DNA of 64,000 bases, taken from NCBI GenBank assembly GCA_017654855.1, contig CM030336.1:2728001-2792000 (forward strand), read 5' to 3'. The DNA comes from Podospora anserina (taxonomy: Eukaryota). This document shows positions 1 through 25,500 of the stretch, piece after piece; the first letter of the stretch is position 1; every line of letters begins with the position of its first letter. Below the pieces are notes generated by a model. The model did not search any database. It was given only the letters and a program-made list of their open reading frames with translations, and had not been told where the DNA came from. The translations under genes were made by a program, and so were the position numbers.

Positions 1-391
1 GTCAGGCCCGTATCCTCTGGTCCGTCTAGAAAAGTAACTCCCAAAGCGTAGACAAAGTAGGGTCTTGGATATTTGGTAAGTCGGTTGGTGGGTCTGGAAA
101 GAATCGATCGGTGAGGGCCGTGGCTTTTTGGTCGTGGGTAGTTAAAAGTGTACCGGTATCACGGCGGTTGCACCGTGATCGTCGTTAATCTAGTAATGGA
201 GCTTAGCACGTGCAGAGTACGGGCCAATACAATTTAAATAACTTCATATCTCGCTACCGCGAGACCTATTTATAGCTCTTTGAGTTACATCTTGACAATA
301 GAGCCTGCCCATACCCGACGGAACAAAGCCCAGACCGTAGCTTAGCTGAATATCACTGTCATTAATCTATCAACCTGTCTTGCCCGTGACA
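1..391 (-). mobile_element. Probable solo LTR of an LTR retrotransposon (left end at or just before the window edge)
   Basis: The minus strand begins TGTCACGGG at 391. The window opens GTCAGG, consistent with (T)GTCA...TGACA terminal inverted repeats. There is an internal TATAAATAG on the minus strand near 266-274, no coding capacity, and it abuts and truncates a LINE fragment. The TSD cannot be verified because the left flank is outside the window. Confidence 0.5.
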
Positions 392-485
392 GACTGCTTC
401 GCGGGCAGTAGTTTGATTTGTTGTGTGGATTAATCCACGGCTCTTGGATAGCCAAGAGGTCGAATTTTGCTTCCTCCAGCAGTAA
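392..485 (-). mobile_element. Remnant of a LINE (Tad1-like) ORF2 endonuclease N-terminus
   Basis: Manual translation gives LLLEEAKFDLLAIQEPWINPHNKSNYCPRSS, matching the D-x-x-AIQEPW-x-NP motif at the start of fungal LINE APE endonucleases. Confidence 0.7.
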
Positions 486-487
486 TT

Positions 488-793
488 CTAGCTGGCTTGG
501 TTGAGAGGCTTGATGCGAGGCAAAAGGTAGCTCTCAATGAAGTGCTTGTAGCCAAGAACGAAAGCACCATCGATCTGGCCGTCCGAGTCCGTCAGAGTGG
601 TTCCACGTGTGACAAAATTGCCATGGTGGCTCAAGGTCAAGTTCTTGGGCTTCTCGTGGTTGTCGACCATCTCACAGTCCAAAAGGCAGTTGAGCGAGGT
701 GTCTGCTTGGAGTGGGAAACGAGACTCGATCTCACGCATCTTGGCACCGTGGACAGGATCCTTGTAGGGGGGAGTAGTGTGGCAGCTTGTCAC
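488..793 (-). pseudogene. Fragment of an uncharacterised protein-coding gene
   Basis: The frame looks protein-like (LNCLLDCEM...GAFVLGYKHFIESYLLPRIKPLNQAS), has no proper start, and ends at the LINE scrap. Confidence 0.3.
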
Positions 794-916
794 CAGATGC
801 GCGAAGAGCTTGTGTTACTCTTCCCTGTCACAAAACAAGTACCATATGATGTGGAGAAAATCTCCGTGTTTCTAGCTAGGCCACTGGCTACTACTCTACC
901 AAGCCCCCAATCTAGC

Positions 917-1608
917 CTAAGGCTTTCTCGCCAAAGCAGCTTGAAAACCCGGGCACCCCTTCCTCAAATCATCCTTCGTAACCTTGTGCTTAGCATCTCT
1001 CTTCGCCTGCCTAAGACCACGCCCAGAATTCTTGACAGCACTCTGCTGGAACTCCAACGGCGCGACGGCGAAGTCGGCATCAGACATGCACAAGTGAAGG
1101 TGCATCTCTCCCGTGTTCACACGGCAACTTCTAGCATCGGGGTGGTCATCCTCCTGGTAGACATTCACGCAGATTGCGTTCTTCTTGCACTACAGAATTT
1201 GGCATGTGTTGTAGGCAGGCTCGGAAGAGCCAGGGAAAGTGACTTGGACGTAGACGTTTTGGTCGTTGAAAGGGCTTGCCGTAAAGGCCGGGGCCTTAAG
1301 CTGGTATTTGTCTGGACCTTGTCCCCACGGCGAATCTTGACCGAGACGCCTTTGTCGTTCTTCAGAATGACATAGCCGTGTGCAGAGCCTGCCGCTGCCT
1401 TAAAGGGCTCACCACCCTTGCCGATACAGAGGTCGTTCACGCCCTTGTCACAGGCCTTGGGGTCGTCAGCAGAGGCGCTGTGCCACCAGTACAGGGGGAA
1501 GCTGCAGTGGTTGTGGACTTGAACCAAGTCGGCAGCGGAGGCGGACTGGGTGAGGAGGCCGAATGTATCGGCCAGGCCGGCTAGAAAGAAGTTGGTAAAG
1601 GAATGCAT
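917..1608 (-). pseudogene. Secreted BYS1/thaumatin-like protein pseudogene
   Basis: Signal peptide followed by VQVHNHCSFPLYWW. After a frameshift near 1290 the frame reads SPFNDQNV...TCQIL*CKKNAICVNVYQEDDHPDARSC...MHLHLC, with an in-frame TAG at 1190-1192. Confidence 0.55.
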
Positions 1609-2237
1609 TTTGCTGGCTTTTCGATGTAGGTGAGGATGATGGGGAGAGAAAGAATTCTAGAAAGAAAGTTGACAGATATATATACGTCTTGAAGGCCCCT
1701 CAAGAGCAGAGTGAACGAACTGGCGGAGTGGATCTGTGGAGGTAGCTAAATCTCTGATGGGTAACGAGTTGATGCTCCTGGTTTTGTTGAAAAGTAGCTC
1801 TTGCTGGAAATCTTGATAGACTATGTGGTGATAGCTTGATATCTTACTCATGTGAGAGCAAAGAGCAACCCGTTCCCTGTTACAAGTATCTGCTCTCAGA
1901 TACAGGTGGGTATTAGTTCCTTACAAAACCCAGTTCTACTGGTTCAAAGCCATTATGCTGCTCTTTCAACTTGACATGAAGTATGACTATAACCAGAGGA
2001 CGATGGGATGATGACGCCAGTATGGAATCTTTCAAAGTGCTGTAAAAGAGCAAATTCAGATGATTTTGTGAAACGTCTAGAAAAAAAGAAAATTACAAGG
2101 GCGTACATCTGGCTCCCTTGTAGGAAAACAACCGCATTGGATGTCAGATGATTCCATCTGACATGAAAACAAGGAAAGCAAACTCATAATGTGCTAGCAT
2201 ACCTTGCAGATTGGTATGACTCTTACATCATTTCCCG

Positions 2238-3652
2238 TCATACCCGGCGGCGTGAAGCCTGACGCTGGTGTGTTTCCGGCATAGTTGTAGAAAGACCGCC
2301 CAGGTTCATCCTCGTCGTCTTGATCCTATTTCCCTCTGACCACTTCTTCAACTCATCCAACAGCTCCACAGGCAGCCCGTCAAAGCCTATCATCAGAGAA
2401 TTCTGCTCGTCCTTCTTCGCATCGGCGGTGGCTGCAAAGTACGGTTCAGAAAGATCCTCGATCAGGTACCCAACACCAACGGGTTCCCCATTCTCGTAGG
2501 CAAGTAGAAAAAGCGACTTGCTGGACGAATTGAAGGGAATAAACAGATGGAGATCTTCTCCACCATGCCGCCCATTGGAATCGTGTAAAAACACTAGCCC
2601 CTCGCGAAGGAAGTAGCTGTGGCCTGAAAACGCACTCCTAGCTCTGATGTGGCTCTATAAGTCCCGGCCAATGATAGAAATGGTTGGTATACCTCTGACG
2701 GTCCTTTGGTGAGGCTGATAGTTGAGCCGGAACCTTGCTGTCGTCTTCCCTTCCCAAATCCCAGCTTTTTGGAAGTCCGTAGCATCAATGACAGACTTGC
2801 CAAATGACTTCAGTTTCTGGTTGAAGACCTTCCTGAAGACCGAGAGATATGTGTCTTTGCTGGCATCAGCTGCCTCACCAATTGTTCCAATGAGGTCCTT
2901 GTCTGCGTTCTTGTTCGGCAGGCTGTATGAGATGATCTTGGGGTACTTCCGTTTGATGGGGGAGAGGCCAGTGGCGGCGGTGGGCACGATAAGCACGCGG
3001 TGGTTCTTTTGTCTCTTGGCTTTGGGCTCTGGGAGGATGATGACATGTTCTGTAACAGGTTATCAGCAAGCGAGGATCGGCAGTGGTGCTGGGAACAAGA
3101 TGATGACTTACCGATATTGACGAAAGGAATCATCTTGATCCCGTCTGCTCCGCCGATTATCCGCACACCCCCACTCTTCTTGATCTTAGAGTTCCCACTC
3201 TGTACCTCGAAACGCATATTGCAAGGAGAGGGATATTGTGAGGGAATATGCTTATTCGTTCCAGGCAAATGGAATCCTGTTCCAACGCTGATATGCTCTT
3301 CCTCGTTGCCATAGCAAAACTGATTTCCACGGGTCAGGGTGCTCCAGTCAAAGGAATCGACGGCTGAAGCCTTCCGCTCCTCTGAAGCATCTTGACCTGC
3401 GGCGGCATCATGAACCTCCCCGGCAAGCTCCTCCTCAATGGCGGCCTGTGTGCGGGGACTGCGTCTGCGAGGTCTGTGCCGAACTGTCGAACTCTTTCGT
3501 GGTTTTGGCGTTGCTGACGCTGATGCCTTCGTAGCTTTTAAGCTTGGCGGATGTGCGGGCTCCGGTGTGGTCGTGGCCTCCCTGGCAGCGACGCGTGATG
3601 ATCGACGCGTCGGCGCGGTGCTTGGAACTCCAATTTGCTTGCGAGGAGGCAT
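2238..3652 (-). CDS. Divergent Rtt106-like (double PH domain) histone-chaperone paralogue, about 427 aa, 3 exons
   Basis: Exons 3652-3112, 3049-2693 and 2623-2238 join in frame across GT-AG introns 3111-3050 and 2692-2624. Segments NIEHVIILPEPK...HRVLIVP, AADASKDTYLSVF and GHSYFLREGLVF...LFIPF resemble recalled fungal Rtt106 blocks. Confidence 0.6.
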
Positions 3653-4603
3653 GTTTGCAGCCAAAAAAGGTCTTGAAGCAGATGGGCAGGAATGATACAA
3701 TGTCGTCGAGATAGAAGTCGCTTTGGGCTTTGCGTTAACTTTTTATATAGTTCGGGGGCCGAAAAACTGGACAAGATTTGACTTTGTGGAAATCATTTGG
3801 TGCCATCTGGGGATGGCCCTAACTCAGCTGGTAATCTCAGCCACAGTTTGGATCCTTTTCTGCTGTTTGCGTTCATTGTTCTTGAGACAAGGGTATGATC
3901 TGTCGAAGAAACTCGTAGTGCTCGCTCGTCGAGCCTTCTCGTTGCAAAGAGAAAGGTAAATAATGGAACCCATACATTAAATGATTGGCCTTCTCAGCAC
4001 AAGATGCAATCGAAATCCAGTCTCTGTTTGTTGCTGTCCAGGTGCATTTCGAAACAGTTAAAATAAAAAAAGCAAAAGGAGAAAGACGTGACCATGATGG
4101 GCTTGAACCCACTACCTGGAGCGAAGGGTCGGTCCGGTCCACACAACCCCAACTGGCCAGGCCAGGTGGCTCGCGGCTCCTTAACCATTGCGCTATCTAC
4201 ATACAATGTATAGCTACTTCGCTGGTGGGAAGAGCCAAAGGGCGGTATATAAGCTGCCGCCTACTGGATCTATCAGGTACCTATCTCGCACCATCGAACC
4301 TGGAACCCTTAGGGGCCTTTTCACACCAAACGATTCTTGTCCTCGACGTCGATGTGCTTGCTGCTGCCTTTTGTATTGTCCTCCTGCCACTTGTTTGTCA
4401 AGTTGAAGAGGCAACCGATGGAATGTTATGTCCAACAATGAAGCGACTGTGGTTGTATTCGGGAGACAAGCTCATAATGTTGGCAGGAAAGAAAAAGTCT
4501 TGTCCTCTGGCTTGTCCAGGCTTTTCCCACCCAGGTTGTATTGTCCACCTCGCATCTCCCAACCGCTGCCACTAGCACCGCCCAGACGACGCCACCTACC
4601 TAC

Positions 4604-5068
4604 TCAACCTTCTCCAGCCTCTCCCTTCTTCAGGTACTCCATATAATTTATTCTCTCCTGACACCGATCTCTATCCATCCCCGCATTGTCCACCTTCGCC
4701 TGGAGATCATTCAGCCTCCGCTCCAAAGCAAGGCTCCGGAGAAAATACGCCGTCCTCAACGCATTCAGCGAGGCATTCTCCTGTCTAAGCTTGACGATCG
4801 TTGCCTCCAACTTGACAATCTTTTGACTCAGTTTTGACTCATCCAATTCCTCTTTATGCCGCCTCTCCATAGAGATCATATCACTTTCCATCTTCTTCTT
4901 CTCGCCCTTCAACGAGTCGCAGTGCCGTTGGAGCCGAGTGTATTCTTTGAGGAGCGTCTTGCGGTTCATACGTTCAGGGGGCCGTGGTTCGCAAGATGAG
5001 GCGGGCTTCTCGCGCGTTAGATGGAGGCGCGAGCGGACGCCCTGCATCCGTTCTGAAAAGTTTCCCAT
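4604..5068 (-). CDS. Orphan coiled-coil protein (154 aa), paralogue of 58634-59375
   Basis: ATG at 5068 (MGNFSERMQ), heptad-like E/K/L-rich body, and visible similarity to the gene at 58.6 kb. Confidence 0.6.
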   Translation of the reverse strand: MGNFSERMQGVRSRLHLTREKPASSCEPRPPERMNRKTLLKEYTRLQRHCDSLKGEKKKMESDMISMERRHKEELDESKLSQKIVKLEATIVKLRQENASLNALRTAYFLRSLALERRLNDLQAKVDNAGMDRDRCQERINYMEYLKKGEAGEG

Positions 5069-6268
5069 GTCAGATGTGTGGTGAGGGACTGATATGATGG
5101 GTTGTGTGTTTGCGGTGAAGTGTTGCTTGAGAGGCACCAAGAACGTCAGGACATGGAGACACCGCCTTGACAGTCCTGATGTCGAGAACGGAGAACCCCA
5201 TGGGGAGGCGATGGATGGCTCAGGGTGGCTTCGCAAGACTTTTGGCGGGTGAAAGCTTAATGTTCAACACAAAATGTGGTAGACCCCGGTTCCTGAATCG
5301 CGCAATCACGGGAACCGGGGTTTGGAAATTGCAAACACTCAAGACAAACGTCGTCGATTAAAAAGCCAACTGCCAGCTTCATGGTGGATGGATTATGCCA
5401 CCTACTCGATGCACAAAATGCTGTTGCAAGAGCCCCCTGTTTGGGTTCCTTTCCACCTTCCACCCACCTTCCTTCCGGCTTCCCCTACAACAAGCCAATA
5501 AATCTTCAACAGCTCTTCCCCAAGTTTTGTGAAACCCAGGTGACCGGGCAGCGGTAGTCGCAGAATGGAAAATGACAAAGATGGTCAAAAACCGGCGGAG
5601 GGGGATAGGATGTGCGATGAGAAGGACGATAAGGGAGATGACCAAGATGGGGAAAATGAAACTTGTCACCCGGATGGTATTGATCACTTGTGAGGGGAAT
5701 TACACCGCAACGCCTTCTAGACATAATAGCAAGCAGCCAGTGATAAACAAATGTTTTTTCGCTCTGCAAATTGCCCAATTGCTTGACAGCGGCACAAGCC
5801 GAATAAATGAGGCTGCCCGTCGTGTGGTGGTCCTCGGCGCTTAACCTACCCGCCAACCGTTTGGAAGCGCCGCAAGCGGTGCGCCGCTCCACTAAGGCAA
5901 TATGTGACAGCCAATTATGACTTGGTGCAGGTAGCAGCCGCGATTGACTTGTCGGAAGGGGATTAGCTACCGCTCAGGCGAGATTTTTGGATGCAAGCCC
6001 TGGTGTTGGATGAGTGGGGGAGAGGGGAGGTTCGGGGGGAAGGCATGCAAGTGTTTTGGCCGATTGGGCGGTTGAGGGAGGATCCTGGGGTTTGGGAGCT
6101 TGATTTTTGATGGGGGTCTGGAGAAAGGAGAAAGGCTAGGTAGTTTTACCAGCCTCTGGAATTTCAAGTTGCATAGGTACGGTTGGGTAGGATATAATTA
6201 TGCTGTTTTGAGCCACGTCCGATCTGTTCTGGCTTTGTCTAGTTCCATGCTATCATTACGACAACAAA

Positions 6269-16553: not shown

Positions 16554-19500
16554 CTACTCCAACCCCCTAAACCTCCTATTAAACTCCTCTACCGCCACCG
16601 CCACCATCCTATAAATAAACGTCCTCCCACTCTCCTCCCCAATAGGAATAAACGGCCCGTTCGTCCCCCCCCTCAACGTCAAGCTCAGCCCCGTCCTCTC
16701 CTTGGCAATAGTCTGAATATCCTTCAACGGCACATCCCACTCCGTCTGCAACCTCCGGCTCCTAATCAGCAAAATCCTCGAGTACGTCACCATAACCACC
16801 ATGTCCTCCGTCGGGAGCTCCAGGTGGGCAATGTACTGCTCGTCAAAATACTTCCCATTGTCCACTTGCTTCAGCCATGACTGACCGAGCGCTTCCCGTT
16901 GGCTGTAGGGGCGGACGATACCGTCTGCGGGAATGTAACGGGGTAGACGGACACGATCGAGTTCCGAGCCGTCGAACACGGTCGTGGTGTTGCGTACGCC
17001 TTCAGAGATGTTCGACGCGAAATCCAAGACGCCAATGGCTGGTTTGGTGGCTAGACCAACGACACCCTTCCCGATACCCTTGAAGAAACCCAGCGCACCT
17101 TCTTGCTCCGCACCCTCAAGTGGCTTCCTCGCCAGACCTCCCACACCTGAAGCAACAGAGGTGAACAGGCTGTTAGCGCCCGCAGTGACGCCGTAAATGG
17201 CGTGCTTTGGCCGGTTGCGAGCACGAGTAATGCGTCGCCTGTCCTGGAACTGCTTATCCATCGTTGCCGCCGCAAGACCCTTGGCGAAACTGCCAGTGAC
17301 CTTGGAGAGCGAGTCACTGACGCCAAAGACCGATTTTTTGAAGAACGAACCCGCGCCACGGGCGACGCCGAGACCAAAGTCCTCGGGTTTGTCAGACATG
17401 ATGAGCCCTTGGTAGGGTTCGTAAAAGATGTCGGCGAAGCCAGAGCTGATATTGTTGAACAGACCGACTGGGTTACCTAGGAAGTCGGCACTGCCCAAAA
17501 TCTTGTGAACTTGGTACAGTGCTTCTTGGCTGTAGTGGTTCGAGATGTTCTGGATCAGGATCGGGATTGAAACACGAACGTTCTCCAGCATCAAGGCGTT
17601 GAACCGGATGGGCGCATCGTTGATGTTTCCAATGGCCATGGTCATGACATTGAAGAAGAACATGACAGGGTTCCGCGACGAAGTCTTGTCTTCGGCATTG
17701 ACACGCTCCGTGCGCACAAAAGACAGATCAAGCTGCATGGGCTGAATGTTGAGAACCTCAAAGTAGATGTCCTTGCCGGACTGCTGCTGCTTGGGCTGCG
17801 GGATGTCAATGTTGTCATCGCAGAGCTTGTCCTCCTCGACAGTGTCTGACCACGAAGCCCCCGGAATCTTGGAGTACTCCAACACCGCATAGATGAAGTC
17901 TTCGTCGAGTTCGACAGTCATCTCTTGCAAGAGAATGGTAGCGTACTTGATGTACTCGACGCCATAAGAATCATCCTTGACACGAGTGACCATGGCGTGC
18001 AGCGACGGGTGAGCGTCAACCTCCTGGGCGCGCTTCGGAACCACGCTGGGGTAGAGAATCATGGGAAAGATGCCGCCATAGAGTTGGTTATCAATCTGGA
18101 TCCACTTGACAGCCAAGCTGATAGTCTGGTAGAGAGGCGAGTCACTGTACCGAAGCGCCACATCACGGAAGGTGATGTAAGCCAACTCCTTCAGCTGTGA
18201 GTTGATGAGGGATACGCCAATGCCAGACAGACGCAGCTGCGCCCTAAAGGTAGTGCCTGTATCCAACTCCTTGGCCTCGAAGCCTTCGCGACTGGTGGTG
18301 GATCCTGCGTTGGACTTTTGCCGGTACAAACTCTTGGACTGCTTAAAGTTGGACAGGATGAGAGTCTGTGTCGGACCGTCGGCGGTGACATTGATGTCAA
18401 TGATCTTGGACTGCCCGTTGGTGCCAATAAACTTCATGGGCATCAAGTTTCCAATCTCGGCCAGCTTAACATAGCGCTCCTTGTTGTAAGCACTGATGCA
18501 AACCTCCTTGTGCTTCGCGGCTGGGAAGTCCCAGGCATAGGGCATGATGCTCCTGGGTGGCAGACGGTAGCGCACAGGCCTCCAGCCAGATCGGTCCTCG
18601 GTGCCATCCTCATCGATATTGGGGTTGACCTGATAAAAGGTGAACTCGGTATCACTCTCATTGCGCATGGAGAAAGGCCAGGCCTTTTGCTCCATGGACA
18701 GGTTGAGGAATATGGTGGCATCCTCCATGAGAATGTCAACCCGGACGAGGCGCTGACGCTGACCAGCCTTGGCAATCTTGATGTGAGTTGTGCCGAGATC
18801 TGAGATGTTGAAAGGTGCTGTCCATTGGTTGTCGACACCAGGATGGCACATGCAAAGTTGCTTCACATGACCTCTGTTGAGAAAGTGTAATGGCCGGAAG
18901 GCACCACTCTTGAGCGAGATAAGGCCAGATGAGCTGGGCTCCCGGATGTTGATGTCTTCCCCAAGCTTGTTTTGGATGACATATCTTGGCGCCAGGGTAA
19001 CCGTCTTGATCATCTTGTACTTGCCCTGACCCGACTCGACAGTAACACCAAGATGGATCTCGGCATTCCGTGTTGGAGAGTTGAGCACAACTTCCGACGT
19101 GCTTCCGATCGCGTCAAAGCTCTGCGGCTTACTCCACTCCGAGTCGCCGACCTTGAGTAGAGCACGATTGCGGTGGTCGTCACTGTTGAAGGAGAACATC
19201 ATGGGCTTAGTCTTGCGGTGGCTTCCGTCACCAATGTCGATGAGCGCCTGACCCGCCGCAGCCTTGGCCTGTTGCATGAAGCCCTTGGAACGGACGCTGA
19301 CATCCATACCCGTCTTGTTGAGCACGACGTAGGGGCTGTACACGGTGACCTTGAACGCACCACCGCTGTCTGGAATACGATAGTAGTGCAGCCGCAGGTT
19401 GAGCGCCATACCAGCATCGTCCTTGCAAACGAGATGTGTTTCCTTCTTGAAGTCATCGGTGGCCCCAGCGTTGATGATGGCAAACTCGCTCGGCTTGAAC

Positions 19501-22500
19501 ACAGTGTCCTGCATATCGACACTGAGGAGCAAGAGGTGCGACAGCTCGACAACGTGGACAGGACTGACGCCGCCCTTGCGCAAGAAGTTGGACCAGTCCT
19601 TCTTGGTGTTCTTGTCGTATATCCTATACTTGAAGTCATAAGGCAGCAAGTTCTCCAAGGTGACTGGTGCTGAGAGTTTGAGACGCATGTATGGGTAGTT
19701 CCTGCGATGGTCAGTTATTGCGTTGCAAAGGCGCAGGTGCTGGGACAACATACCTAGTCATGGGATTTGCCTTGTCGAAGCGAGCAGACATCTGGAAATA
19801 GAATGGCTCCGCATGGTCCCCCTTGCACACCATCGTCTTGGTTGGCCGCTTAAGCAAGTCCCTCCACCACAGCGTGTCGTTGCTCCATCCATATCCAAAT
19901 CCAGGATCAGGACGGACAAGCAAACTCTTCAAGTACACAGCCCCAACCGGTGCTGGCCGGCTCTCACCTGGCGCAATCTTCTCAATTTTGAGAAGGTGGC
20001 CCTCGTGCGCATCGTACACACCAATCTCGACAGGGATATCCGTCTCGTTCTCAACCAACAATGGACTGCGCAGAGTCACATATTTGACGTTGTCGGTTCC
20101 AAGCTCGACGTGGACCAAGAGCTTGTGCAGAACCTGATCAGCCTTTGGCTTCAAGGCATACAAAAACTCGCCCTCTCGAGTGAGGCGAATGTTCTTAACC
20201 ATGTCGAAGCCACTGCCCTCCAGCTGCACCCCAACGCTGCTAACACCGTTCTCTGCCAGAAGATTCTCACGCATCTTCTCCCAGTCCTCAAAACTCCAAG
20301 GTGCTTCCTGCCCATCTTCCAGTCTGAGAGACGTCGGCTCCTCACTGCTCTGTCGCTTGGCATGTACAGCAACGTTGAACCCCGTGTAGTTGCGGATGCG
20401 ATATGGTGCTTCAGCACCGCGAGGCTTGGACAAAACATCCTGGTCCTGAGAAAAGAAGGCGAAGGACTTGGACAAGAGAGCAATGCTAGCAGTGGTGACG
20501 GTGACATCAAAAGTCCGGTTAGAGGCAACATCAACCGAGGTGACACCAGAGGCCTGGTCACGAGCTACACCAAGACCAACTTGCCAGGGCTCGATCAGAG
20601 GCTCCCAGGCGGACTTGGCAAAGTTGTAGATGTTGGTGTACATCTCGATGGATGCCTCCGCCTTCAGGTTGGAAGACCAGTTTGCAGCGGTGCTTGTGAA
20701 TTTCTTGATGCTCATATCCAGAATGGGAAGTTCGTGCAAATCGCCGATCAGCACTAGACGGACTCCGTCAATAGCGGCAGTGAGCTCTTCGTGTCTAGGA
20801 GGCGCCTTGACAATATCATGCGGCACGAGTTGCCCGGACTTGGTGGAACGACCAGAGGTGCTGACACCGCCGACACTCTTCTTGCTTGCCCGTGTTCTCG
20901 CAGCGAGGGTGGACCCGCCCTTTCCACTGGCCGATCGTTGCTTCAATCCTGGCGGTGCCTTGAGCTGCTTCGCCTTCTGATCGGAGGCTTTAGCAGTATT
21001 ATTGTTGGCGGGAGTGCCACCAGACAGCTCAGATGCTTTTGTGATTGTCTGCATCACCAGCAAAATATCTCGGAGCGAGACCCTAAGAATAAGAGGCTCA
21101 ACATCGACATGGATCTTGGTTGTCTGCGGTTGCGAGCTATCCATGGACATCTGGACGGAGAAGTCGTCAATGATTCTGAGCCGTGAATCGTCGAAGCGGT
21201 CCATCCGACACAGGAACATGCCGCATTGAGAGATCTGGAAGGTGAAGGCGTGCTGCTGTGACAGGAGGACTTGCTTCGTTCCCAGCACGAGAGCCTCTGA
21301 GCTTGCACTCAATGGGTTGGCGATGAGAATGACTTGGGCATCAACCACGTTGACGCGGTAGGCAAAGGTCAACTTCTTGGGCTCCGGTGCTTTCGGGGCT
21401 TCAGCTGGCTTCGACGGAGAGATGCCGCGGCTGCTACTCTGGGAAGGTCTGCCGAGACTAACTTGCATGGAGTCTGCATCGCTCATCTCCTCCGGGCTCT
21501 CTATTGGGCTCTTGTCTGGGATAGCAGGTGGCTCGACAACCTGCGTACCAACAGTAATGAACTTCTGCAACGCAAAGAGGTAGTCCAAAGCAAAGATGAC
21601 ACGAGGACTGTCGATAGCAATCATGGCGATGACGTTCCTCTCCTCACCACCCGACATCGTGATGCTGGCCATGAACTGTTGGACATCCTTGTTGTTGCTC
21701 GTCATGATGCGACGGAACTTGTTGGTCTCGCGATGCCGTGTGTCAAAGATGGTGAAGGCCTGAATAACAAGTTCAGCCTCGAGACTCCCATTCGAGTCCA
21801 TCCGGGTCTTGATAACGCTTGAATCCAGGCTAAACTTGGAAAGACTGGCAGCGTCCATATCGCCAACTGGGGCATCTTCCGGGGCACGAATCAACTCCAA
21901 GCCAATGGTGTTGACCGTGAAGACAAGGTCCAACTTCGTCCAGGCCTGGCCGTGAGTGCCAAGTTCAGGGCCCATGTCGATGAGCTTCTCGTTGCTGCTT
22001 TCGCTATTAAAGCCAGTCATGGTCCTAGCACGCTCCAGAGTAGCATCGTCAACGTCACGCTCAGCCTCCTCGTCACTCTGCTCAGCACCACCAGCAAAGG
22101 CGGCAGGCACAGACCTGGACAGCTCAAGAAGAGAATTGAGCTGGTAGGGAGTGATGCGGAGGTTGAAGTCAGTCATGGTTCCCTCAATGTCAAAGTCGGG
22201 CCGCTTGACGCCCTCCTTGTGCTCGGCGTACGTGACCTTGAACTCGAGATCAACGTGGTCGATCAGTTCCAACTCCTCCGAGCGGTCACCAGTGTAGTGG
22301 AAGTTGGAAGTCAGACGAATGTTGCGGATACCAGCAGACAGCTTCATGGCAATATCTGCGTTCTCCGAATCGTCAAGCGGGGCAAACTTGTTCTGGGCAT
22401 AGATCTCTCCCAGGTAGGCCGTGATGACGTCTCGCTTCGGCCTTTCGGGCATCACAACTCGAGGGAAGACAACAATGGGGGTGTTGATGACAACGTCGAA

Positions 22501-25500
22501 CTTTATCCTACTTGACGTCTGTTGCAGCTGGTTGGCCTGGTTGGCCGCAGCCTGACGAGCAGCATTGTAGATGGCTTGCATTTTGCCAAACTTGACGAGG
22601 AAGTCCACAATCTTCCGGAAAGGCTCTTCAAGGAAATTGACCTTGACCGAACCGGCACGCAAGAAGATGGACGAGTCATAGCCTGGGTACAGCTCCGGCT
22701 TGAGTGGATCAAAAGTCTCGTACCGGAAGTTGGCGAGCTCTTTGCCCTGGATTGTTACCAGTTGACGAAGACTAGAGTCTTCTGAAACACCCTGGTTGAC
22801 ATCGTCCACCAGAGTCAGGTCGCCGAGCTTGGTGTTGACCCGCATGGTTCTGCCAAGAAGGAAGACTCCAACATCGGCATGGTTGAACGACAGAGTGGCC
22901 AGCCGGATCCCATCATTATTCAGGATCATGCGAATACTCTTGAGATCAACCTTGACCCGGATTGCCCCGGCCTCCTGCTGGAGCTCTTCCTCTGGGGGGA
23001 CCACTTCCACATCAACTTCCGAGTCATCGTCGGTAATAGCCTTTTGTGTACTGGCGTTGTTGCTTGCATTGTTATTGGTGAAGGTGACGAGGATGAAGTC
23101 GAGCAGCGTGAGAAGAGTCTTGCGCGTGACGACGAGATTGATGGTGGAGACGGCGACATCAACGTTGGTCTCGATGCCTTCATAGACACTCATGAACTCT
23201 GGCGACTCCTTCTTGACCCTAACAAACTTGACATGAACCAGGTTTCTCGCTTGCTGGCGATCTTCTACATCACCAGACGACACGATGGACTTGAACTCGG
23301 CGGAAGGGTTATCCACAAAGTCGTCGACGGTCACTGAACCCAGTGCCACTTCAGCTGCCATGTCATAGGGCCGAAGGTAGTACTCAACACCAAAGTGTTC
23401 GGCCACGAGTTCCACAAGAAGCTGATCTGGGCGTTTCTTGTCAGGATCGCTGCGGTAAAGTGACCCCTTGAGCTGGTCAACTGTGAACTTGAACTCGAAT
23501 ATCCGTTGCTGGAGCTTCAACTGGTCCTTAGAAGAGGTGTCTTTGGCGTCTTCGAACTTGTCGTTATCATCATCCAAGTCGTCGTCGTTCAAGATGATGG
23601 CTTGCTGAGCGGAGGGGAACTGGAGAAGCTGAGTAGACGGCGCACGGTCCGCCCACCGCTGTGACCGTGACGAGGCATTGCTGGCGAGACGGGGTCGCTT
23701 GGGGCGGGTTTCCAGTGACGTTTGTGTCTGGTCGCCATCAAACTTGGGTATCGCGACTTCGATGATTCGCATGAGAGTCTTGTACTTGGCATCCGATGCG
23801 CTGACATGTAGCACGGGGAGATGACCAGACACTTTGAGCTTCGTGAGGTTCGGAGCCTTGGGGATGATGGACGTCTCGACAACAAAATTGACGTTGATCT
23901 TGTCAACAATGTGAAGCTTTTGACGTTCGTCCTTCTCTACCAGCTGTTGTTTCGTCTCCTTAATAGAGGGTCCAATCAAGACCTGAGTGGATGTGAGCTT
24001 GACCAAGAACCGATCATACATGAGAGATTCTAGCCGCTTAAAGTCTTCGTCTGTGTAGCTCTGGTTCTGCTTGGACTGGACCTCCTTCATCGTATCCCTG
24101 TCCACTAGCTCGCTGGTCAGGCTGATGTGACCGGCATCCAGAATCAGGCATGTCGACTTCTTGTTGGTGATGCTCTCGGGGATGATGATAAGGGGCGCTT
24201 GCAAGTCGAGCTTGGCATTGACAGTCTTGTGTTCCTCCAAGGCAAACTCCAGACCTGCTCTCGTCTGCTCCCGAAGGCCCTCCACCGTAGCACCAGCTGT
24301 CTCCATGAGCGCGTTGATGGACTCCATGTGCCGGTCTGGTGGCCTGAAGAAGTCGGCCACACCTACGACGACATTGGGATTCCACACAATTTCCAGAGGC
24401 TTGAGCTTGGCAGTCACAGCCACATCACCTTGTCCATCCAGAGGGTTCTGCTCGACCTGGAACTGGAAGAATGCCTCGTTACCGTTCTTCTCCAGCTCAG
24501 CGATGGACAGGCGTTTGTCGGGGTCGCTCTCCGGGGCATCCTTGACGCGGACAATCTCCTTGTAGACACTGTTGGGAGTGGTGCCATCGTTGACGCGCAG
24601 GCCACCAAGACTGAGGTCAGCCAGGAACGAGTCGGGACGCTTAATACCCTTCGCCTTGAACACATCAAAGTGAAGACTAATCAGATCTCGGGTGTCACCA
24701 TGAGGACTTTGCTTGAGCGTGAAACTTCCCATGCTAAGAGATGCCTCCAGTTGCATCTTGACAGTGTCCCTCGGTACGTCGACCTCGGCGGCAAGTGCCG
24801 TCTTCTCATCCCAGTCGATGACCTCGTAAAGCTCCTTGCGTTGCTCCTCGGTGATCTGGATGTTCTCAGAGTCATCCTGCTTCTCTTGATGTTGCGGCTT
24901 GGAACCCCACGCCCAGGCCAGCCAGCCCTGTTGTTGCTGTGGTTGCGCGGGTGGACGGTTCCTGAGGGCTTCCGCATTCTCCCTCTTAAGCTGGTTACGG
25001 GCGAGCGAGCGCCAGAACCGGAGATCCTCGTAATCGAGCTTCCACTCCAGCCTGTTTAGGTCGTCATTCTCCTGGGCTGACAACTGTTGGCTCTGCTTCT
25101 TCTTTTTGAACAACTCAATGTACCGCCTCCTGTCATCCCTGCGCTCTTTGAAGTAGTCCCAGGACCAACGCCTGTTGCGCTCGTGGATCTTGCTCAGCAC
25201 AGCATTGCCGGCAAACTGGAGCCATGCGCGCGGATCCTCTTTTGGTCTGACTCCCTTGGGCTGGTATTTCTTGTACTCTTGATGTCGAATAAAGTAATGG
25301 AAGAGGTCCACCATCATCAGCGCATCACGGTATTGCTGGTCATCCAACACAAGACCGATTTCATCAAACAGCAGGTTGCCCTTGAACTTGGGCACCTGTC
25401 GACTTCCGGTCTTGTCGAGCTCGATCTTGGCCTGGCCGGAAACAGGCTTCAGGATGAACTGATGCGTGCCAGATTGGTCGTTCTCCCCGCTCACAATCAT

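Follow-up and report, generated by a model that had tools for sequence, protein, structure and literature searches.

A candidate decaying member of a fast-evolving, putatively Rtt106-derived tandem-PH protein family in Podospora anserina

The window, by which we mean the whole stretch of 64,000 nucleotides of Podospora anserina DNA analyzed here, carries at positions 2238..3652 of the minus strand a gene of two introns, referred to below as the window gene. About 1.8 kb downstream of it lies a RIP-like repeated stretch, the end (1..400) of a tract of about 4.4 kb that extends upstream beyond the window. The TpA/ApT ratio is 1.06-1.38 in this tract versus 0.39-0.61 across the window gene, and part or all of 155-398 has copies at 14 further genomic sites. 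The ORFs of the tract gave no match in Pfam that would name its repeat class; the tract is probably transposon-derived. A small neighboring gene (920..1608, minus strand) shows a weak hint of Bys1 (E 0.018, below the Pfam cut-off) and possibly encodes a secreted protein. Part of 920-1608 resembles C7:3045768-3046299 (73-74%), and the annotated model of P. bellae-mahoneyi (P0004) joins the last 90 aa of this neighbor onto the family gene. On the side opposite the RIP-like tract, about 13 kb from the window gene, lies VPS13 (16557-26262, minus strand), which consists of two overlapping long ORFs (2183 and 1067 aa) with the VAB domain split between them, either by an intron or by a frameshift. 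A protein with NPHP3_N and WD40 domains, resembling fungal NLRs, is encoded at 34148-38095 on the plus strand. The description of the neighborhood as TE-scarred in an earlier note on this DNA is supported on the side of the repeated tract.

Joined by script, the window gene reads from the ATG at 3652 to the stop codon at 2240-2238 as 427 codons with no internal stop. Exon 1 (3112..3652, minus strand) encodes a basic, Pro/Ser/Thr-rich N-terminus of low complexity (about 70 aa), a short acidic patch, and the first strands of the first PH domain (PH1); it is 95% identical to the copy in P. bellae-mahoneyi and 36% identical to that in T. verruculosa. Intron 1 (3050..3111, 62 nt) is in phase 1, with the borders GTAAGT..CAG and a branch-like GCTGAT. 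Exon 2 (2693..3049) encodes the remainder of PH1, including the family motif IVPTAATG and a helix common to filamentous Rtt106 proteins, and the first strand of PH2. Intron 2 (2624..2692) is also in phase 1, has the borders GTATAC..CAG and no match to the branch pattern CTRAY, and its length of 69 nt is a multiple of three. It contains an in-frame TAG at 2657-2655, so that the protein would stop at about 311 aa, ahead of most of PH2, if the intron were retained. Exon 3 (2238..2623) encodes most of PH2 with its C-terminal helix, followed by about 20 residues past a frameshift. An imperfect inverted repeat of 34 nt (74%) at 3076-3157 has its arms on either side of the intron-1 donor, possibly by chance; it is the only informative repeat found in positions 1-6000 of the window.

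We favor the 69-nt intron 2 because phase-1 GT-AG introns occur at both sites in the paralog L005 of the same genome and in all six distinct metagenomic gene types. These six types represent 13 loci, with one representative each, and come from a single sample series, hence not from independent campaigns. The other open options of 45, 51, and 63 nt would add an insertion that the relatives lack and were rejected. In addition, many database fragments of the family end at these two intron positions of the profile. By this comparison of gene structures, the predicted two-intron, 427-codon gene is confirmed as real. Sequencing contigs were available from four runs, three of which were RNA-like (that they derive from RNA is a guess); such contigs show presence, not absence. 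No exon-exon joint is listed for the window gene in the four runs, and intron 1 is covered by none of the three RNA-like ones. Exons 1 and 3 are covered by some RNA-like contigs at a depth of 2-3, and the acceptor of intron 2 is crossed ungapped by a single 151-nt contig of depth 2-3 in each of two RNA-like runs from two studies, possibly through carry-over of DNA.

Residues 1-70 of the predicted protein contain 17 K/R, 2 D/E, and 12 P, and its last 60 residues contain 11 K/R and 8 D/E, in agreement with the Arg/Lys/Pro-rich N-terminus and the lack of an acidic tail noticed earlier; the motifs quoted at that time are also found in the protein. Pfam returned zero matches to the three exon pieces. 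The spliced model scored 24.7 bits against the HMM of the canonical Rtt106 core, a match above chance because 300 shuffles reached at most 3.0 bits, and the HMM of the family described below scored 292 bits (E 1.9e-89).

The genome (36 Mb in 9 contigs) contains three PF08512 loci above the cut-off: a Pob3-like gene (L001), a Spt16-like gene (L002), and a canonical RTT106 (L003), whose protein ends in an acidic tail. The last is the RTT106 ortholog of this genome, being 98% identical to the named Podospora RTT106. Overall, the closest relatives that carry a name are Podospora proteins, with identities of 89-99%. Canonical Rtt106 coexists with a family member both here and in the eight named species checked. 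The window gene is, as judged from these comparisons, not an Rtt106 ortholog, let alone the only one, and a canonical RTT106 does exist elsewhere in the genome as the earlier note expected. A DNA-level duplicate of the window gene was not found in the genome, and protein searches of it returned only the window copy and L005, besides two weak matches to the low-complexity N-terminus. L005 (L005:845-2393, corresponding to C6:4244560-4246108, plus strand) encodes 476 aa in an open frame with two canonical-looking phase-1 introns of 59 nt each, and is 76.5% identical to its ortholog in T. setosa (P0053). It looks like a working member of the family. L005 stands tail to tail with the apparent 3' part of a HET-domain gene.

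Exon 2, used as a query, returned 11 relatives among 284 candidates, every one of them hypothetical or unnamed. When a profile of eight relatives was compared with 1.84 billion representative proteins, 184 clusters were recovered at E<=1e-3 and 124 at E<=1e-10. Among the best 150 of the 184 clusters, 30 proteins were looked up: 28 bear the name of a hypothetical fungal protein, one has no name, and the remaining one is a canonical Rtt106 (P0152, recovered at E 8.6e-9). P0152, whose record reads 'histone chaperone [Quercus suber]', has neither the acidic tail nor the N-terminal domain; it clusters with the Rtt106 proteins of fungi and is probably contamination from a fungus. Named members of the family come from the Sordariales, Coniochaetales, Glomerellales, Hypocreales, Diaporthales, and Xylariales, with species of Fusarium, Colletotrichum, and Diaporthe among the hosts, and also from Xylographa, Pyrenula, Knufia, and Elasticomyces. 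We take these orders and genera to represent four classes of filamentous ascomycetes, a spread that does not fit the lineage-specific factor proposed at first. That the factor was undescribed agrees with our literature search on Rtt106 paralogs, domains, and residues and on filamentous fungi, Sordariomycetes, and Podospora, in which no title or abstract describes such a family, although a gene table might mention it. Within the reach of that search the family is undescribed, and the named members looked up carry only the label 'hypothetical'.

The comparison of a 38-row family alignment with a 19-row Rtt106 alignment gave a profile-profile probability of 98.3 (E 2.4e-14) over 250 columns. Against single sequences, one for each protein and not profiles, the family alignment gave E values of 1.3e-10 for Rtt106, 0.049 for Pob3, and 0.14 for Spt16. 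The family HMM scored 18-62 bits on 22 held-out canonical Rtt106 proteins, 0.3 on Pob3, and -0.5 on Spt16, and of 67 family rows, 13 matched PF08512 at E<=0.05, with 3.9e-5 as the lowest value. The window gene and the canonical RTT106 (L003) also have intron 1 in common, both in its site, ahead of an E-H/Q-x-I strand, and in its phase. The sequence scores and the common intron therefore favor an origin from Rtt106 over one from Spt16 or Pob3, and the family is very probably of Rtt106 descent.

One quick tree and two from FastTree were built, none of them reliably rooted, as Pob3 and Spt16 are too distant to serve as outgroups. A long branch (support of 98 and 100) parts the canonical rows from the family rows, the window copy among the latter, and the branches of the family are about 5 to 10 times longer than those of canonical Rtt106. 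The window copy is sister to the T. verruculosa protein P0007 (support of 99), and L005 is placed beside that of T. setosa. The proteins of two lichen fungi of different classes, Xylographa (P0021) and Pyrenula (P0025), form a weakly supported group within the Sordariomycete rows, which could reflect hidden paralogy or horizontal transfer.

The fold was examined with AlphaFold models of two relatives, P0007 (pTM 0.73) and P0029 (pTM 0.89), not of the window protein itself. Both are tandem PH structures, and the ESM Atlas is in agreement; among its unnamed clusters there was no usable match. Structure comparisons of the two models with Foldseek and VIA-align gave Z-scores of 13-17 against the middle domains of Pob3 (Pob3-M) and Spt16 (Spt16-M) and against Rtt106, compared with about 9-10 for unrelated PH folds. 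Together with the profile match, this bears out the earlier reading of a tandem PH protein derived from Rtt106. The Z-scores are tied among the three domains, so the fold itself does not separate them. The middle domain of Pob3/SSRP1 (2GCJ, 4IFS; L001) is alike in its tandem PH (Z 15-17), but its sequence similarity to the family is marginal at the E value given above, and the family lacks the N-terminal PH pair and the acidic tail of that protein. The middle domain of Spt16 (4KHO, 4Z2M, 4IOY; L002) is likewise a tandem PH (Z about 14-16), but its similarity in sequence is undetectable, and the family has neither the other Spt16 domains nor the acidic tail. Family alignments used as HMMs against the PDB sequences gave nothing significant (the best were Mpe1 at E 0.032 and Pob3 at E 0.98). 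The terminal extensions of the family model (residues 15-27 and 310-332) superpose on those of Spt16-M and have no equivalent in the Rtt106 or Pob3-M structures; Spt16-M alone aligns to both of them, over residues 15-332 of the model rather than 28-309. In the models, this likeness may be either a convergence or an ancestral feature.

An older, fourth tandem-PH paralog, or a derivative of Spt16-M or Pob3-M, would explain the tied Z-scores and the alignment of Spt16-M alone to both extensions. It would also suit the quick tree with Pob3 and Spt16 included, in which the family does not fall on one side of any branch (two changes, with long branches). We nevertheless regard an origin outside Rtt106 as very unlikely, since the family HMM recognizes canonical Rtt106 but neither Pob3 nor Spt16, and the intron and the helix insert in PH1 are common to the family and filamentous Rtt106.

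Taking Rtt106 as the parent (PF08512, PF18469; 3GYO, 3FSS, 3TVV, 6THL; L003), the family is alike in the tandem PH, the helix insert of PH1, the phase-1 intron, the basic cluster before PH1, and the hydrophobic positions of the core, which are retained. It differs in what it has lost. The canonical N-terminus was recognized (HMM >15 bits) in none of 32 family rows versus 21 of 22 held-out canonical rows. The last 50 residues contain 6-24% D/E in 28/28 family rows and 52-70% in 20/21 canonical rows, so that the acidic tail is found in none of the 28; in one family model (P0039) an acidic tract lies upstream of the domain. The surfaces of Rtt106 that bind histones or DNA, a basic patch on PH1 and the H3K56ac-binding residues of PH2, are reportedly those described by Su and by Zunder in 2012. 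With yeast residue numbers counted from the 3TVV alignment and 21 canonical rows as the reference, in which these surface positions hardly vary, the residues equivalent to S80, R86, K88, R226, and K229 occur in 2, 0, 4, 0, and 0 of 28 family rows, and those equivalent to G243-F244-K245-K246-P247 in 0, 0, 6, 2, and 0. For Y261, T268, F269, M285, Q288, and Y291 the counts are 0, 0, 1, 0, 1, and 0, and S80, R86, Y261, T268, F269, Q288, and Y291 are kept in 16-21 of the 21 canonical rows. At the level of motifs, PQRKK, RGSKDG, GFKKP, Y-TS-VL-x-RTFN, and EFGMLDQ are all replaced.

The family also differs from Rtt106 in a second intron, in its longer branches, in its multi-copy and patchy occurrence, and in conserved elements of its own: a segment Q-Y/F-Y-Q-G on the N-terminal side, the loop IVPTAATG, and, on the C-terminal side, a strand with an FY-D-Y..P..GW/F hairpin. 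Three motifs peculiar to the family are present in 21/32, 19/32, and 22/32 family rows and in 0/22 canonical rows, and those at the N- and C-termini fold with a pLDDT of 91-97 in P0029. The earlier idea of an inverted charged tail is not supported, as all 21 held-out canonical proteins have a K[RK][RK][RK] cluster before PH1 and the N-terminal net charge varies across the family from -34 to +11. Basic N-terminal clusters occur in 26/30 family rows, and the basic N-terminus may be a region for nuclear localization. RTT106-EGFP of Sordaria macrospora is nuclear (PMC6293562).

With its N-terminal domain, its acidic tail, and the invariant surface residues gone, the family is likely, as far as its sequences tell, to lack the canonical chaperone function, contrary to the name of histone chaperone given to it at first. 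In the yeast work, which sets out the domain order of Rtt106, the H3K56ac peptide binds PH2 and Bcd1 binds PH1 apart from histones (PMC7994586), and the homodimerization of Rtt106 is essential for binding the H3-H4 tetramer (PMC6028955); a dimerizing role of the N-terminal segment in filamentous fungi would be carried over from yeast (PMC7994586, PMC6028955). The members might still be histone chaperones, or decoys that compete with Rtt106 for histones or partners, as their fold is that of three H3-H4 chaperone domains, basic clusters are frequent at their N-termini, and a canonical RTT106 stands alongside in each of the eight named species that were checked, as in the present genome. A decoy would need one surface only, and the binding of Bcd1 to PH1 shows such a separation from histones. 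However, the fold alone is no proof of histone binding, because hSSRP1 PH3/4 in isolation did not bind histones (PMC8639466). In addition, both of the reported histone-binding surfaces are replaced, and the N-terminal domain and the acidic tail are missing. We consider a chaperone or decoy unlikely. A predicted complex of P0029 with histones (two chains each of H3 and H4), in which the alignment was not used, scored 0.00 and counts neither for nor against binding.

The window copy itself shows signs of decay. In tblastn comparisons with the intact relatives P0007, P0010, and P0029, the reading frame moves from -1 to -3 in the interval 2304-2298. The conserved C-terminal motif FY-x-Y...P-x-SGF is present on the minus strand at 2194..2298 in another frame than that of the gene. 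The end in the displaced frame has a mean score of 35.5 versus 14.1 for the native end, and 200 shuffles gave 16.1 +/- 1.3 with a maximum of 20.9. This motif is matched by 22/32 family rows and has a pLDDT of 92-97 in an intact member, and the final 20 or so residues of the window protein have no match in relatives outside the Podospora complex. The frame called intact in the earlier note is indeed open, but the motif has been shifted out of it. The frameshifted end is common to 4/4 relatives within the complex and has thus persisted. The signals of intron 2 are weak, and its in-frame TAG is missing from two Logan relatives. The lack of a branch match in that intron is weak evidence, because 3/14 introns of other members also have none.

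The window protein differs from those of two sister species, P. bellae-mahoneyi and P. pseudopauciseta, at 31/396 (7.8%) and 28/280 (10%) residues, whereas canonical RTT106 differs from the same two at 8/472 (1.7%) and 7/473 (1.5%). The 26 variable core sites fall in 9/61 conserved columns versus 17/129 elsewhere (p 0.82), with the reservation that three of the nine conserved-column variants (positions 181, 182, and 199) may stem from the ends or junctions of gene models. The changes among the sister Podospora copies include radical ones (G>W, I>N, G>D, D>G, and E>K). As read from the annotated proteins and not from DNA, the P. bellae-mahoneyi model implies a lost or changed intron-2 donor with a change of frame, and about 130 residues are missing from that of P. 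pseudopauciseta. Among the six metagenomic gene types, the C-terminal motif is in frame in two, close to one-base shifts in two (possibly assembly errors), and absent in two; decay is common across the family.

A working gene that evolves fast and ends in a new C-terminus, the lesions in its sisters being local losses or annotation errors, would accord with the open 427-codon frame, the canonical intron 1, the lack of a RIP signature over the gene, the altered end common to 4/4 members of the complex, and the RNA-like contigs (RNA by guess) over exons 1 and 3. Against this, a motif of most family rows is displaced, the changes do not spare conserved columns, and the intron-2 acceptor is unspliced in the two contigs, which may be carried-over DNA, with no joint listed. 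We hold a working gene to be rather unlikely, and the window copy to be probably decaying.

Outside the window copy, codon comparisons show a constraint on the family. In three unsaturated pairs out of 28 family pairs, dN/dS was 0.28-0.35 (L018/L025, 0.30 with an interval of 0.20-0.46), and pairs with the window copy were saturated (dS about 2 or more). At about 0.3, these estimates show apparent purifying selection on the family. Two metagenomic copies that are 84-85% identical have no flanks in common, and the family seems to move as a single gene. Three different copies (L018, L026, and L028) occur in one metagenomic sample. One copy has a DDE_3 transposase fragment, below the cut-off, immediately upstream (L020:3660-4130), and another has an HNH_2 protein downstream (L023:5788-6606). 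HET-domain ORFs near family genes were seen at L019:1491-3785, L028:8329-11454, and L017:1235-2572.

HET-domain genes lie within about 2 kb at 3/6 family loci with usable flanks (L005, L019, and L028; two 2-kb contigs were left out), compared with a background of roughly 5-10% per 12 kb (149 matches in 36 Mb). The family might accordingly be a sensor or bait in a fungal conflict system, such as non-self recognition or defense against selfish elements, that acts beside HET-domain cell-death genes; the copies without common flanks, the patchy spread, the long branches, and the frequent 3' lesions would suit such a role. The association was, however, noticed post hoc at six loci, of which the metagenomic ones are from a single series of samples; HET genes are in any case abundant in accessory regions, and no HET gene was found near the window copy. 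A role in conflict seems to us improbable. More improbable still is its extension, by which the family would be a mobile mimic of a chromatin chaperone, trapping effectors that selfish elements or competitors direct at Rtt106 or FACT and signaling to linked HET-domain cell-death proteins.

We lean, by somewhat more than an even balance, toward the window copy being a decaying member of an old, fast-evolving, repurposed family of Rtt106-derived tandem-PH adaptors. The family would have been born by duplication of RTT106 in filamentous ascomycetes. It has kept the tandem-PH core and gained motifs of its own; the N-terminal domain, the acidic tail, and the Rtt106-invariant surface residues are gone. 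There is perhaps an even chance that its proteins are nuclear adaptors; these would bind a partner other than H3K56ac-H3/H4 through the new surfaces, would probably not dimerize in the manner of Rtt106, and would have a basic N-terminus that arose as an expanded nuclear-localization cluster of the old linker. The family may have evolved by birth and death, and the window copy would have lost constraint before the radiation of the Podospora complex and be decaying now.

The tandem-PH chaperone domains returned by the structure searches are those of Spt16, Pob3/SSRP1, and Rtt106, to which the family adds a further one. A fast-evolving family that lies below the Pfam cut-offs and is called 'hypothetical' in the named members looked up would mean that this fold has been repurposed in fungi. 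For genetic work in this model genus, the intact paralog L005 would be a better target than the window copy, and the family may offer a direct test of which surfaces turn a tandem PH into a histone chaperone.
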